This document shows, one piece after another, positions 31,836 through 41,312 of a DNA stretch of 64,000 bases. The stretch's first letter is position 1, and each line of letters starts with the position of its first letter. The stretch is from NCBI RefSeq assembly GCF_003334305.1, contig NZ_QOWS01000004.1; one strand, given 5' to 3'. Made by a program: the position numbers and the translations under genes. Under the pieces are notes generated by a model that was not told the origin of the DNA, did no database searches, and saw only the letters and a list, made by a program, of their open reading frames with translations. The stretch is from Escherichia coli (GTDB lineage: Bacteria > Pseudomonadota > Gammaproteobacteria > Enterobacterales > Enterobacteriaceae).

Positions 31836-32657
31836 GGGAGTTCTACCGCAGGGGCGGGGAATTCTAAGTGATATCCATCATCGCATCCAGTGCGCCCGGT
31901 TTATCCCCGCTGGCGCGGGGAACACTCACGCGCTGTTACCCAGTCCCTTTTTTTCAGCGGTTTATCCCCGCTGGCGCGGGGAACACCGCCGCGGACTCAC
32001 GAGCAGACCATCACAGACCGGTTTATCCCCGCTGGCGCGGGGAACACGCAGACTATAACGAGGGTCGCACGCGGATCATCGGTTTATCCCCGCTGGCGCG
32101 GGGAACACTACCAAACCGGAATCTTTCCATATAACGGCGGCGGTTTATCCCCGCTGGCGCGGGGAACACTTACTCGCCGGGGAATACGCCCCGCGCCACG
32201 CCGGTTTATCCCCGCTGGCGCGGGGAACACCTTACTCATTCAGAACGCTGCATGAAATATGCCGGTTTATCCCCGCTGGCGCGGGGAACACACCCTCCAG
32301 ATCTCGGGTGTCGGTAATGAAAACGGTTTATCCCCGCTGGCGCGGGGAACACGAGCGCGTGCCGTGCCTGGGTTCATATGATGGCGGTTTATCCCCGCTG
32401 GCGCGGGGAACACGTGGTTGTTTAGGCGGGATTTGTTGCGTAAGTCGGTTTATCCCCGCTGGCGCGGGGAACACCCATTTCATCATGAACGGCGGAAATA
32501 TCGTGGCGGTTTATCCCCGCTGGCGCGGGGAACACTCGTTTCAGTTCAGTTAGATTTATATCCAGCGCGGTTTATCCCCGCTGGCGCGGGGAACACGCTG
32601 GCCGTCGTTTTTACTCAGTAACCGCCAACGGTTTATCCCCGCTGGCGCGGGGAACAC
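31836..32657 (-). CRISPR. Type I-E CRISPR array (cas-adjacent): 13 perfect 29-nt repeats plus 1 degenerate terminal repeat, 13 spacers of 32 nt
   Basis: The repeat CGGTTTATCCCCGCTGGCGCGGGGAACAC (plus strand) starts at 31897 and recurs every 61 nt up to 32629. I checked all 13 copies by hand and they are identical. A degenerate copy lies at 31836-31864 (18/29 identities). The leader is on the cas2 side, so the crRNA strand is minus: GTGTTCCCCGCGCCAGCGGGGATAAACCG. Confidence 0.98.
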
Positions 32658-32753
32658 ACTAAGCATACATAACTGTTTTTAAACAAATTTATTCCGCATC
32701 AACAATCTACCAACTAAATTAAAACATTTCCTTATTTTTAAAGAACGGATAAC
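32658..32753 (-). promoter_or_regulatory. CRISPR leader (AT-rich; promoter and integration signals)
   Basis: 96-nt AT-rich spacer between cas2 and the first repeat. It shares the blocks ACAATCTACCAACT and repeat-proximal GTTATGT with the second array's leader. Confidence 0.8.
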
Positions 32754-33047
32754 TTATTGATTATCAACAGGAAGAAAAGAAACCAAACGTAACCCATCCA
32801 AATCCACCGGAATACGTCTGTTTTCTCCCCAGGTCTGAAATTCAAAACCCGACTCGGTATTGGTCGCCCAGGCCATCACCACATTTCCGCAACCAGCCAG
32901 TTGGGTAATTTGCTGCCAGATCATCTCCCGAATACGTTTTGATGTATCACCAACATACACACCGGCACGCACTTCCAGTAGCCAGATTGCGAGCCGTCCA
33001 CGTAAGCGCGGCGGGACATTTTCTGTAACAACCACGACCATGCTCAT
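32754..33047 (-). CDS. cas2: CRISPR adaptation protein Cas2
   Basis: 97 aa [34 protein letters not shown]..., Cas2 of the E. coli subtype. Confidence 0.95.
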
Positions 33048-38515: not shown

Positions 38516-38612
38516 ACGCATCCTCTCGTAAAAAAGACCATCCCAGGTCGGTTGTCCATCTTTCCATCCTTTTCGGTGTATCAACTATTCAGAGAGTCCT
38601 GTCGCAGACATC

Positions 38613-41312
38613 TCAACCAACCTTGCCAATCAATCCTTCCGTAGCCGAATACCCGCAACTTTCGTCATCGTTGACTAAAATCACGTTTGCCATCTCCGGA
38701 TCTTGTCGCTGTTCAATGCACCACAGCCTGAACGCCTCTCCCTCCAGTAAAGAAAACTCATCCCGATGTTTTTTCCACCAGCTTCGGCGCACTCTGACAA
38801 CGCTCATTTCCCATGCGTGAGCACCGGTGGCATAAGGCTTCACCACACCGTCAATACAGGTAGCCAGCCACAGGGAAACAGACTCCTCAGCCAGACGTGT
38901 CGACAGTTTTTCCGGGAGGTAATCGTTGATATTGGCGGCATAGCCGGGCCTGAAGTTCAGCACAAACTTTTTAGCCATTGCGCGATCGCAGTAATATTTG
39001 CCCACTTGCTCCTGCTCGCTGCGGGCAAATCCTTCCGGCATTACCACGTCCTCACCGTAGACGGATTCAATAAGAAGCCGGGCTGCGTATGGCATCTGAA
39101 TAGCACCTTGCTCACGCAGCACACGCTGCGTCAGCCAGATTCGCCCATGATCGGGATAGACAAATGCACTGTTACGCATGGCACTGCCAAACCATTCGTC
39201 GCCAGGAGAGTCGTCCCAGACGGGAGCCAGAATCAGCAATTCAGGGGGGGAACGCTCGTCCTTTCCGTCACGCTTTAACTGACCATTAATATCGCGGATA
39301 TGCCGCTGTAATCGTCCTGCTCGCTGAATCAGCAAATCAACAGGGGCCAGGTCGGAGATCATTTCGTCCAGGTCAATATCCACGCTTTGCTCAATTACTT
39401 GTGTACAAACAATGACTTGCGACGCTCTCTGTAAACTACAATATTTACCAAAGCGTGCCAGTGTCTCCGTTTCAATTCGCTGGCGATCGCTAAAAGCAAA
39501 GCGGCTATGAAAAAGTGAAAGGCTGGAAGCAGGAATGACGCCGCGGGCAAGCAGCTGACGATGAACCTTAATAGCGTCATCGACAGAATTCCGGATCCAG
39601 GCGATGCATTTCCCCTGACTTACCGCCGATTCGATACGCGCAATACACTCTTGTTCACTATGAAGCCAACCCACGCTGACGCTACGCTCAACGTCTTTGC
39701 GCGTCGCTACCCGGTGTGAGTTCACATCGGATTTCGTGACATGCGTCAGCCAGGGGTAATCATCCTTTTCCAGGAACGGAGCTTCTTGCAGGCCCTCTGT
39801 ACCCCGCGCAAAGGCAGCGACGAGTTTGTCGCGCTGCTGTTGAGATAACGTGGCAGAAAGCAAAATAACGCTGTTTCCGCCACGCGCCTGCCGCTCGATC
39901 AACCCTTCAAGAATGCACGACATGTAAGCGTCACAGGCGTGGATCTCATCAGCCAGCAGGATTTTGTTACTCAGCCCCAGAAGCCGCAGATTATTATGTT
40001 TGAACGGCATCACCGCCATCATCGCCTGATCCAGCGTGCCGACGCCAATTTCAGCCAGCAACGCCTTCTTGTTACTGTCGGCAAACCAGGCCGCACATCC
40101 CTGACTGAACGTTTGTTCATCCGGTTCTTCTGACCCGACTAAATCACCAGACCAGAGTGATTCATTAAAGCGGTCCATTAATGTGCGGGCACTATGTGCC
40201 AGCACCAGGCTGGGGCGGGATTCTGGCGAATAGAAAGCAAGCCAGGTTTTGACCAGCCGATCGTACATGGCATTGGCCGTTGCCATTGTTGGCAGACCAA
40301 AAAACAGCCCCTGAGCTTTCCCCGCAGCTATCAACCTGTGCGCCAGGATAAGCGCCGCTTCTGTTTTACCTGCGCCAGTCACATCTTCCAGAATAAATAA
40401 CTGCGGTCCTTGCTGGCTGATATCCAGATCCAGCACCTTTTGCTGTAACGGTGTCGGATTCTCAATAAAAGGAAACAGCGTATTAATTCCGTTGAAAGGC
40501 GCGACTTTTGCTTTTAGAGGAAAGACGGTTAAGGCGTTTTGAGCCTGAATTAAAGTTTTCTGCCAGTAACCTTTAATATCCATTGGGTGTGCGACGCGTG
40601 GAAAAAATCGCGTTGACGAACCCGTCCAGTCTGCGAGCACGACGGTTGCAGAGATATACCAGGAAAGGTGTTTTATAAGTTCAATGCCCTCATCATCATC
40701 CCAGAATGCGGGGATCTCTATGAGCGGAAACAGTGGTTTGATTTCAAGGAGAAAATCTCGTGCTGCAGCTTTGTCTTCAGGCAGAAAATTATCCAATTCA
40801 TCCATACGATCAGGGGGCCGACCATGATGCCCTGTCGTCACGGGCATCCACATTTCTATCACTCGCCTAAGTTTGCGCGGAGAGAGCGAAGATGAAGGAA
40901 GTAACTCCTGACATTCACTTAAATAATGATTCCACAACCAGTAGCCCAGCGTTGAATGAGAGATTTTTTCGTAATTTTTTCTGGCACCTTCCTGAATCTT
41001 GAGTTCAGGGGGCAGGTAAAGTTGTTGAAAAGAGCGGGCAAATTTTCCAATATCGTGCCAGCACAGCAACCAGGCGAAAAATTGAGCCGCCTGTTCCTTG
41101 TCAGAAATCCCTAATTGACGAAAATAATCAGCCAGCCCGAAGCAATTTCTTTTAACCATTAAATAGCCCATCGCGGCTACATCCAGCGAATGCCAGCAAA
41201 GAAGGTGATAGTCGTCGCCCCCGTCTTTCTCGCCGCGTCGGGTTTTTCCCCAGAAATCAAAAAAAGTCACAATATTTTTATCCTTCAGTAAACTTAAAGG
41301 ATATTTACGCAT
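38613..41312 (-). CDS. cas3: CRISPR nuclease-helicase Cas3 (HD domain + SF2 helicase)
   Basis: 899 aa with HD motifs (HSLDVAA, WHDIGKF), Walker A TGAGKTEA and a DEAH-like ADEIHACD. No clear SD at the annotated ATG, so the exact start is uncertain. Confidence 0.92.
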   Translation of the reverse strand: MRKYPLSLLKDKNIVTFFDFWGKTRRGEKDGGDDYHLLCWHSLDVAAMGYLMVKRNCFGLADYFRQLGISDKEQAAQFFAWLLCWHDIGKFARSFQQLYLPPELKIQEGARKNYEKISHSTLGYWLWNHYLSECQELLPSSSLSPRKLRRVIEMWMPVTTGHHGRPPDRMDELDNFLPEDKAAARDFLLEIKPLFPLIEIPAFWDDDEGIELIKHLSWYISATVVLADWTGSSTRFFPRVAHPMDIKGYWQKTLIQAQNALTVFPLKAKVAPFNGINTLFPFIENPTPLQQKVLDLDISQQGPQLFILEDVTGAGKTEAALILAHRLIAAGKAQGLFFGLPTMATANAMYDRLVKTWLAFYSPESRPSLVLAHSARTLMDRFNESLWSGDLVGSEEPDEQTFSQGCAAWFADSNKKALLAEIGVGTLDQAMMAVMPFKHNNLRLLGLSNKILLADEIHACDAYMSCILEGLIERQARGGNSVILLSATLSQQQRDKLVAAFARGTEGLQEAPFLEKDDYPWLTHVTKSDVNSHRVATRKDVERSVSVGWLHSEQECIARIESAVSQGKCIAWIRNSVDDAIKVHRQLLARGVIPASSLSLFHSRFAFSDRQRIETETLARFGKYCSLQRASQVIVCTQVIEQSVDIDLDEMISDLAPVDLLIQRAGRLQRHIRDINGQLKRDGKDERSPPELLILAPVWDDSPGDEWFGSAMRNSAFVYPDHGRIWLTQRVLREQGAIQMPYAARLLIESVYGEDVVMPEGFARSEQEQVGKYYCDRAMAKKFVLNFRPGYAANINDYLPEKLSTRLAEESVSLWLATCIDGVVKPYATGAHAWEMSVVRVRRSWWKKHRDEFSLLEGEAFRLWCIEQRQDPEMANVILVNDDESCGYSATEGLIGKVG

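Follow-up and report, generated by a model that had tools for sequence, protein, structure and literature searches.

The CRISPR-Cas system of type I-E found in most cas-bearing strains of E. coli is the cas-E1/cas-EO variant, with a type A repeat and ATG-rich PAMs, as described for cas-EO (PMC3737337) and for cas-E1 (PMC3903273) and as also found here. The K-12 system (cas-E2/cas-EK; Cascade structures 4QYZ, 4TVX and 5H9F) is of the same subtype as the locus studied here, with the same gene order and chromosomal site. K-12 acquires spacers almost only from AAG PAMs, whereas the cas-EO variant uses ATG too (PMC3737337). Spacer turnover in E. coli was found to be very slow in published surveys (PMC2886076), and many systems of Escherichia, Shigella and Klebsiella have been grouped with Salmonella cas-STM (PMC7712790).

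We here analyzed a stretch of 64 000 nucleotides (the window) that had 100% identity to strain A7 of E. coli (NZ_CP028767.1), in which PGAP annotates the same eight cas genes and a CRISPR feature, without any pseudogene flags. With a probability of about 0.93, we consider the locus to be a chromosomal CRISPR-Cas adaptive immune system of type I-E in E. coli, at the usual iap-cysH site and of the cas-E1/cas-EO ('var. B-8552') variant. It is as such already known, being present in RefSeq for the A7 genome and fitting published descriptions from 2010 to 2025, and of 5426 complete E. coli genomes, 2413 matched at least 80% of the locus. The gene lengths of 2700, 1563, 537, 1056, 747, 651, 921 and 294 bp equal those of 'var. 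B-8552' (PMC12736100), and the gene order, the iap-cysH site, the hok/sok adjoining cysH and the operon GC of about 51% are also those of cas-E1/cas-EO. The same holds for the type A repeat, with its plus-strand end ...GGGGAACAC, and the accompanying leader, for the divergence of cas3 to cas6e from K-12 with conservation of cas1-cas2, and for a GC content above 50%. We found no difference in kind from this variant, A7 differing by four private amino-acid changes, and a spacer array common to about 20 other genomes is at its fullest in A7. Outside the species, Cse1 of E. albertii and Pseudocitrobacter vendiensis was 96% identical to Cse1 here, and that of Citrobacter youngae, Klebsiella spallanzanii and Phytobacter about 77% identical; these and other Enterobacteriaceae type I-E systems have different hosts and different spacer content.

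All eight open reading frames, in the minus-strand order cas3-cse1-cse2-cas7e-cas5e-cas6e-cas1-cas2 and followed on the same strand by leader and array, were open and uninterrupted, which bore out the initial annotation, and its reading of the locus as type I-E agreed with what RefSeq gives for the identical genome. This identity rests on eight curated profiles; in the profile search that had been proposed as a check, 8/8 Cas proteins passed the NCBIfam type I-E equivalog cut-offs, and they matched the PADLOC Cas*e models too. The type I signature gene cas3 (38613-41312) encodes 899 aa with an HD nuclease fused to an SF2 DExH helicase (TIGR01587, 222 bits, and TIGR01596, 90.7 bits, both above cut-off). 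Its top solved-structure matches were the Cas3 proteins of Thermobaculum terrenum (4Q2C, E = 5.5e-80) and Thermobifida fusca (4QQW, E = 6.4e-64), distant homologues used for a motif check only, with which the HD and SF2 helicase motifs aligned. In the alignment to 4Q2C the HD, GxGKT, DEIH and QRxGR motifs were seen, and HD, GxGKT, DEIH and motif VI aligned to K-12 Cas3 too. The HD residues, the lysine of Walker A and the DEIH box are present, with H86, D87, K316 and D455-E-I-H conserved, in agreement with the earlier statement that the HD and helicase motifs are retained. The cse1/cas8e gene (36953-38515), signature of the subtype, starts at the ATG at 38515 after GAGAGGA and encodes 520 aa, as opposed to a 543-aa frame with a TTG start; the TIGR02547 profile was covered over its full length (609 bits, cut-off 70), with a PADLOC Cas8e match at 1.6e-183. 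The small subunit is encoded by a separate gene, cse2/cas11e (36420-36956; 178 aa; TIGR02548, 99 bits, cut-off 28.5).

The remaining Cascade subunits each scored above their profile cut-offs, namely those of cas7e (35353-36408; 351 aa; TIGR01869, 441.9 bits, cut-off 178), with K27, S40, K45 and M167 conserved, cas5e (34596-35342; 248 aa; TIGR01868, 161 bits, cut-off 69) and cas6e (33964-34614; 216 aa; TIGR01907, 283 bits), in which a histidine aligned to H20 of K-12 is present. The true start of cas6e is at 34614 (216 aa), as in PGAP, versus a mechanical open reading frame of 262 aa. The adaptation module, without Cas4 and with no further annotated genes in the interval from iap to hok, consists of cas1e (33047-33967; 306 aa, GTG start; TIGR03638, 380.6 bits, cut-off 215.6; E141, H208 and D221 conserved) and cas2e (32754-33047; 97 aa; TIGR01873, 133.8 bits, cut-off 33). 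The overlaps of 4 nt at cse1/cse2, 19 nt at cas5e/cas6e, 4 nt at cas6e/cas1 and 1 nt at cas1/cas2 were exactly as earlier claimed. All parts of the system are thus present and uninterrupted, with the checked catalytic residues conserved. Intact reading frames are nonetheless not proof of function, as A7 has missense changes in cas6e, cas7 and cas3.

When compared with K-12, identity was high for Cas1 (85%) and Cas2 (86%), with similar leader blocks, and low for Cas3 (29%), Cse1 (20%), Cas7 (30%), Cas5 (35%) and Cas6e (26%), while Cse2 gave no significant match to Cse2 of K-12. Assignment to the K-12 variant was rejected, with the K-12-specific NCBIfam equivalog models for Cas3 and CasA below cut-off, at scores of 423 for NF007248 (cut-off 569) and 100.5 for NF007247 (cut-off 576). 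The repeats, both of 29 nt and with 32-nt spacers, are one base apart (GAG... in K-12 versus GTG... here), and the intergenic spacer between cas3 and cse1 (38516-38612, minus strand) is 97 nt here versus 414 nt in K-12. The cas operon has a GC content of 51.5%, and only upstream of cas3 is there a strongly AT-rich stretch (41313-41506, minus strand; GC 31-34% in 300-nt windows), probably the operon promoter and silencing target; a promoter consensus scan found none upstream of cas3 and none in the leader. With such a divergent variant, a 97-nt gap and an AT-rich stretch only upstream of cas3, the H-NS/LeuO expectations derived from K-12 are plausible for this locus yet cannot be transferred to it directly.

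The array next to cas2 (CRISPR1/CRISPR2.1) has 13 perfect minus-strand copies of the repeat GTGTTCCCCGCGCCAGCGGGGATAAACCG at 31897-32657 with a 61-nt period, annotated by PGAP as the 'CRISPR' feature in NZ_CP028767.1, and a degenerate terminal repeat (31836-31864) that lies in register, 61 nt past the last perfect one. The latter had 11/29 mismatches in a base-by-base comparison and fell outside a 9-mismatch scan. With the trailer spacer (31865-31896) counted, there are 13 spacers of 32 nt, from S1 at the leader end to S13, of which the oldest, S13, is found also in K-12 derivatives such as C600. The description of a 14-repeat array with 29-nt repeats, 32-nt spacers and a 61-nt period accordingly stood, as 13 identical repeats and one degenerate. 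Tandem Repeats Finder did not detect this first array, a limit of the tool since similarity between the repeat-plus-spacer units is below 70%. Upon folding, the repeat gave a hairpin close to the 3' end with a 7-bp stem and a GCCA loop (-15.2 kcal/mol, z = -3.2), the core of the helix being the CCCCGC/GCGGGG stem noted before. The 96-nt leader (32658-32753, minus strand), described as AT-rich and measured at 74% AT, could be aligned in blocks both to the CRISPR1 leader of K-12 and to that of the second array in the window; by analogy with K-12 work, it would serve as promoter and integration site. Two more arrays that share the repeat of the first were left out of the initial annotation of the system, namely those at 58358-58935 and 57765-57854. 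The former (CRISPR2.3, minus strand) has 10 repeats and 9 spacers, GAGCTC-type variants in its three oldest repeats and its own AT-rich leader upstream (58936 to about 59100), and the latter is a minus-strand remnant (CRISPR2.2) of two degenerate repeats and one spacer.

If the locus operates as the K-12 and Thermobifida fusca systems do, the AT-rich leader would drive transcription of the array, and Cas6e would cleave at the 3' base of the 7-bp repeat hairpin, giving 61-nt crRNAs with an 8-nt AUAAACCG 5' handle. Cse1, Cse2, Cas7, Cas5 and Cas6e would assemble on the crRNA as Cascade, which would find a 5'-AWG PAM with a matching protospacer and form an R-loop, whereupon Cas3 would be recruited and the target degraded. 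Cas1-Cas2 would insert new 32-nt spacers, together with a PAM-derived G, into the leader-proximal repeat.

Prophages or a P1-like phage were matched by 9/23 spacers. Six spacers matched one P2-like prophage, where five of the protospacers share a strand and lie within 7 kb: C1_S1 and C2.3_S1 perfectly (0 mismatches, ATG PAM in both), C2.3_S3 (2 mismatches), C2.3_S4 (2, AAG) and C2.3_S2 (4, ATG), and C1_S5 with 0 mismatches in another strain (ACG PAM). A second prophage was matched by C1_S2 (0 mismatches, ATG) and C1_S6 (2, AGG), 900 bp apart, and C1_S10 matched darB of the P1-like phage D6 at 29/32 positions, with an ATT PAM. Counted by spacer for matches with up to 6 mismatches, ATG was the PAM of four spacers and of one alternate locus, AAG that of one spacer, and ACG and AGG were seen with two spacers each; all tallied matches had A at -3 together with G at -1, as for AWG-type PAMs. 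No spacer match was found on the A7 chromosome outside the arrays, nor in the rest of the window when allowing up to 8 mismatches. The arrangement of the protospacers is in keeping with primed adaptation to a P2-like phage in the past. Three sister strains (7.1994, 05-3629 and OkiPb01694) each had one different extra spacer upstream of S1, that of 7.1994 perfectly matching the P2-like prophage also targeted by A7 spacers. Neither array of A7 holds a strain-specific spacer, and therefore nothing shows acquisition since its split from the sisters. Of the earlier proposal that identical repeats suggest a functional or recently functional locus, the identity of the 13 repeats thus held; it is no sign of recent activity in A7, as its spacers are all common to sister strains.

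In the 62 kb outside the arrays, A7 and NCTC9088 differed by eight SNPs, 5/8 of them in the 8.6-kb cas operon (binomial P = 0.0019). All five of the latter are non-synonymous, and four are private to A7. These private changes are Q42K in Cas7 (window position 36285), at a residue that contacts the crRNA and did not vary among 31 homologues; F164S in Cas7 (35918), next to the intercalating methionine and restoring the K-12 residue at that position; L161P in Cas6e (34133), at an always-hydrophobic position; and H742Y in Cas3 (39089), at a variable site. Under neutrality, the chance that all four would be non-synonymous is about 0.32, and so small a number of changes does not allow selection to be tested firmly. 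Among five sister strains the operon sequences were identical save for single changes; in strain 41 a deletion has removed 3.16 kb, from cas7 to cas3, and strain 7.1994 has a frameshifted cas1.

How these observations should be read with regard to function can be argued in several ways. The locus could be complete in A7 yet a relic that is silent or decaying, with its transcription repressed, selection on it relaxed or even negative and no natural immunity provided, which we hold to be doubtful although deserving serious consideration. The missing A7-private spacers, the clustering of non-synonymous SNPs in the operon, Q42K and L161P at conserved positions, the lesions in strains 41 and 7.1994, an AT-rich region upstream of cas3 like those targeted by H-NS, and the slow turnover and frequent cas loss known from the literature (PMC2886076) all point that way. 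Eight intact frames with the checked catalytic residues conserved and an operon kept nearly unchanged among five sisters argue against it, as do F164S restoring a K-12 residue, H742Y falling at a variable site and the small number of substitutions; moreover, the leader-end spacers gained by three sisters indicate that the variant works in nature. That the four-substitution cluster in the interference genes instead is a trace of selection on Cascade/Cas3, and not drift, we regard as unlikely. If selected, the changes might possibly have attenuated interference so that a useful targeted element is tolerated, or might possibly give escape from an anti-CRISPR protein binding Cas7 or Cas3.

The private substitutions could also be sequencing or assembly errors, the locus then being the clade-consensus operon. 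All four were seen only in the A7 record, and for Cas3, Cas7 and Cas6e the sisters share protein accessions that are not those of A7; however, the changes are base substitutions and not indels, and their clustering in one operon and uniformly non-synonymous nature would not be expected of errors. Since only three sites differed from NCTC9088 in 46 kb of flanking coding sequence, the A7 assembly is accurate overall, and we find errors an improbable explanation. Least convincing is a mainly non-immune role in host-gene regulation, as proposed for the type I-E system of Salmonella, which we judge to be very improbable. The Salmonella papers drawn upon here propose that cas genes take part in virulence, in the synthesis of porins and in the formation of biofilms, and the slow spacer turnover in E. 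coli would agree with such a function; against it stand the lack of spacer matches on the A7 chromosome outside the arrays and the matches to prophages and a phage-plasmid with mostly AWG PAMs, a signature of immunity.

With the locus taken as a cas-E1/cas-EO type I-E system, its spacer set offers a clean case from nature of apparent primed adaptation, directed against a single family of P2-like phages. In the A7 allele, a conserved residue of Cas7 that contacts the crRNA is naturally substituted, and A7 would, if Cascade/Cas3 was indeed under selection, be a natural variant of a Cas7 palm residue. More generally, the K-12 Cascade and Cas3, the basis of nearly all mechanistic work, are absent from most E. 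coli strains, and therefore the regulation and PAM rules established with K-12 should not be copied uncritically to the majority of the species.

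Eight uninterrupted reading frames lie upstream of the cas-adjacent array and on its strand, and together with the array they make up a locus spanning 31836-41312. The initial annotation had described these frames as an intact type I-E set, and the profile searches bore this out, with every Cas and Cascade subunit recognised and with PADLOC models in agreement. Each of the eight proteins exceeded the curated type I-E cut-off of its NCBIfam model: Cse1 (609 bits against 70), Cas7e (442 against 178), Cas1e (381 against 216), Cas6e (283 against 45), Cas5e (161 against 69), Cas2e (134 against 33), Cse2 (99 against 28.5) and Cas3, in both its helicase domain (222 against 102) and its HD domain (91 against 43). 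The stated junction overlaps (4, 19, 4 and 1 nt) are reproduced when cas6e begins at 34614 and cse1 at 38515, their real starts. The HD and helicase motifs said to be kept in Cas3 do align with K-12, the HD pair, the Walker A lysine and the DExH box all being identical. Likewise identical to residues essential in K-12 are Cas1 E141, H208 and D221, the catalytic histidine of Cas6e, and K27, S40, K45 and the intercalating methionine of Cas7. The sole exception among the essential residues checked is Cas7 Q42, which is a lysine in strain A7.

The array adjoining cas2 (here C1, 31836-32657, with spacers numbered S1 to S13 from the leader end) contains 13 exact copies of the repeat GTGTTCCCCGCGCCAGCGGGGATAAACCG on the minus strand at 31897-32657, in a strict 61-nt period. 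A base-by-base comparison placed a 14th repeat at 31836-31864, in register and with 11 of its 29 positions mismatched, so that the regular array of 29-nt repeats and 32-nt spacers reported earlier consists of 13 perfect repeats and a degenerate one; all 13 spacers are 32 nt long. The AT-rich leader was also confirmed, measuring 96 nt between the cas2 stop codon and the first repeat, with 74% AT. As to the stem proposed for Cas6e processing, the repeat is predicted to fold at -15.2 kcal/mol (z = -3.2 relative to shuffled sequences) into a hairpin whose 7-bp stem is capped by a GCCA loop. Tandem Repeats Finder did not report the array in the window, a limit of the tool rather than counter-evidence, because the units are half unique spacer; the only tandem repeat that it did report comprises two copies of a 24-nt unit (83% match) at 13713-13759, within otnK (13644-14906). 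At gathering thresholds, Rfam matched only sok in 30500-42500, and no CRISPR repeat family, an outcome with no bearing on the array either way.

The 9.5-kb locus and the surrounding 16.5 kb match the E. coli A7 chromosome (NZ_CP028767.1) at 100% identity, A7 being a strain isolated from orangutan faeces. PGAP annotation of that record reads cysD, iap, CRISPR, cas2e, cas1e, cas6e, cas5e, cas7e, casB, casA, cas3, Hok/Gef, cysH and cysI, with no pseudogene flag on any of the cas genes, and comparison with the K-12 region identified the site as the classical iap-cysH CRISPR position of E. coli. The locus is not novel: the public record of its genome already annotates it and the literature covers it well. 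Its earlier description and interpretation as a known class of immune system were correct. Between cas3 and cysH lies an apparently intact hok/sok toxin-antitoxin module, with a hok CDS at 41507-41659 and a sok RNA at 41644-41801, both on the minus strand (PGAP Hok/Gef family protein; Rfam RF01794, 113 bits), whereas K-12 retains only sokX at this site; both hok and sok occur in 90% of surveyed uropathogenic strains (PMC12736100). The iap gene, which adjoins the array, carries a private H305N in A7 (window 31690), and one Iap protein accession is common to all sister strains examined.

Judged from its sequence, the system is the cas-E1/cas-EO variant and not the K-12 version. Identity to K-12 is 85% for Cas1 and 86% for Cas2, whereas it falls to 29% for Cas3, 20% for Cse1, 30% for Cas7, 35% for Cas5 and 26% for Cas6e, and K-12 Cse2 gives no significant match to the Cse2 found here; Cas3 and CasA also score below the cut-offs of the NCBIfam models specific to K-12. 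The two variants were described by Díez-Villaseñor et al. in 2013 as cas-EK, which is that of K-12 and has a type T leader and repeat, and cas-EO, which is that of O157:H7 and has type A (PMC3737337), and by Almendros et al. in 2014 as E2 and E1, with E1 considered primary in the species and supplanted later by the K-12 system in only a minority of strains (PMC3903273). The gene lengths listed for 'var. B-8552' in a 2025 survey equal those of the window (PMC12736100). A match to at least 80% of the locus is present in 2413 of the 5426 complete genomes of E. coli. Beyond the species, Cse1 of E. albertii and Pseudocitrobacter is 96% identical to the protein encoded here, and that of Citrobacter, Klebsiella and Phytobacter about 77%. 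Contigs of methanogenic and methanotrophic archaea (Methanosarcinales and Methanoperedens; L044-L057 and L059 among the comparison sequences) encode Cse1 proteins that are 36-39% identical to that of the variant, and so closer to it than the Cse1 of K-12 at 20%.

The gap between cas3 and cse1 is 97 nt here, in contrast to the 414 nt that house the regulated Cascade promoter in K-12, and the only strongly AT-rich stretch (GC 31-34%) is found upstream of cas3, at 41313-41506; on these grounds, transcription of the operon probably begins there. Little weight attaches to the failure of a sigma-70 consensus scan to detect a promoter in the leader or in front of cas3, since the scan is strict and these regions are AT-rich. 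Control by H-NS and LeuO is a reasonable guess by analogy with K-12, from which it would not carry over automatically.

Two further arrays with the same repeat as C1 are situated about 25 kb from it, between ygcE and queE, an array site in the literature that corresponds to the extra arrays here (PMC12736100). These are CRISPR2.3 (58358-58935), a 10-repeat array whose three oldest repeats carry GAGCTC-type variants, and a two-repeat remnant (57765-57854), separated by 500 bp of AT-rich sequence. A separate leader serves CRISPR2.3 and has blocks of sequence in common with the leader of C1.

With regard to the age of the spacers, the oldest in C1 (S13) is present in 3746 genomes, and S1-S12 occur in only 60. 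When the arrays of nine relatives were parsed, the shared array was fullest in A7, the others differing by internal spacer losses, and 7.1994, 05-3629 and OkiPb01694 each had one extra spacer at the leader end, all different. These leader-end additions therefore indicate that the variant does take up spacers in nature, with the polarity expected. Neither array contains a spacer private to A7; the leader-proximal spacers of CRISPR2.3, considered as candidates for recent private acquisition, are common to A28, DETEC-E601, 41, WL164, FCI51, H15 and NCTC9088. The earlier observation that the 13 copies are identical stood, but this identity is no sign of recent activity in A7, which has no private spacer.

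The four newest spacers of CRISPR2.3 all match one P2-like prophage, which is also matched by the newest spacer of C1. C1_S1 (in N1420 and 40EC) and C2.3_S1 (in N1420) match it perfectly with an ATG PAM; C2.3_S2 matches it on the opposite strand with four mismatches (ATG), C2.3_S3 with two (ACG or ATG depending on strain) and C2.3_S4 with two (AAG); the extra spacer of 7.1994 also matches this prophage perfectly. C1_S5 matches the portal gene of a relative (LZSFT34; no mismatches, ACG), and C1_S2 (no mismatches, ATG) and C1_S6 (two mismatches, AGG) match a second prophage (STEC384) on the same strand, 900 bp apart. Among the six P2-like protospacers, five share one strand and fall within 7 kb, a strand bias that fits priming but does not reach statistical significance. 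Primed adaptation yields clustered, strand-biased spacers from one element and requires Cascade, Cas3 and Cas1-Cas2 together. The prophage spacers look like products of past primed adaptation, in numbers too small for significance. Every PAM of the prophage protospacers begins with A (-3) and ends with G (-1), and ATG is the commonest, in agreement with the natural protospacers of cas-EO, where CAT, the complement of ATG, was found in 34 of 55 (PMC3737337).

Searched against 50,697 phage records, the spacers matched only darB of the P1-like phage D6 and, for C2.3_S2, Pasteurella phages (26/28, E = 0.3), the latter being treated as chance. The darB match, by C1_S10 (32048-32079), is 29/32 and recurs in more than 100 phage-plasmids; a plasmid search returned mostly these P1-like elements again, plus mislabelled chromosomes. 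It is mismatched at three spacer positions, 6, 18 and 30, and the flanking triplet is ATT, not AWG. Cascade leaves every sixth spacer position, including these three, without base pairing. Tolerance at such positions was nevertheless not adopted as the explanation, since the mismatches, located within a protein-coding sequence, are also spaced like third codon positions and drift at these explains the pattern equally well, with chance estimated combinatorially at about 8%. No spacer matched the rest of the window, or the A7 chromosome outside the arrays.

Over 8655 bp of leader and operon, A7 was compared with NCTC9088, DETEC-E601, TUM1887, H15 and A28. These five relatives are mutually identical, except that NCTC9088 and A28 have a singleton apiece; A7 carries four private substitutions, all of them protein-changing. 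Cas7 Q42K replaces a residue invariant in all 31 homologues compared, K-12 included, and described as a palm residue contacting crRNA (PMC5965380). Cas6e L161P affects a position that is hydrophobic in 16 of 17 homologues, with a gap in the remaining one, Cas7 F164S gives the residue of K-12, and Cas3 H742Y falls at a variable position. Comparison of A7 with NCTC9088 over 62 kb, arrays excluded, gave only 8 differing sites; the cas operon accounts for five, each of them non-synonymous (binomial P = 0.0019). Apart from the arrays, one indel separates these near-identical strains, a single base at window 20789, and rpoS (20756-21784, minus strand) is an open frame in A7 and annotated as frameshifted in NCTC9088 (10196-11189 of L064).

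On the simplest reading of these sequences, the A7 substitutions would reflect a seldom-used system under relaxed constraint, with which the frequent cas decay described by Touchon and Rocha is consistent (PMC2886076). It seems unlikely that the changes instead arose by selection, whether for attenuated interference or for escape from an anti-CRISPR, and sequencing error is a somewhat poorer candidate still; four events are too few to establish any of these readings. Cas damage was also seen in two strains having the spacer array of A7, independently in each: strain 41 (L069) has lost 3.16 kb, equivalent to window 35898-39061, so that cas7 is fused to cas3, and 7.1994/NIST0056 (L012) has a frameshifted cas1, yet carries its extra leader-end spacer. 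The private missense changes in A7 mean that intact frames should not be taken as proven function. What is worth keeping from this locus is that it represents a non-K-12 variant, that its prophage-targeting spacers resemble products of past primed adaptation, and that in A7 it carries a missense change at a conserved crRNA-contact residue.
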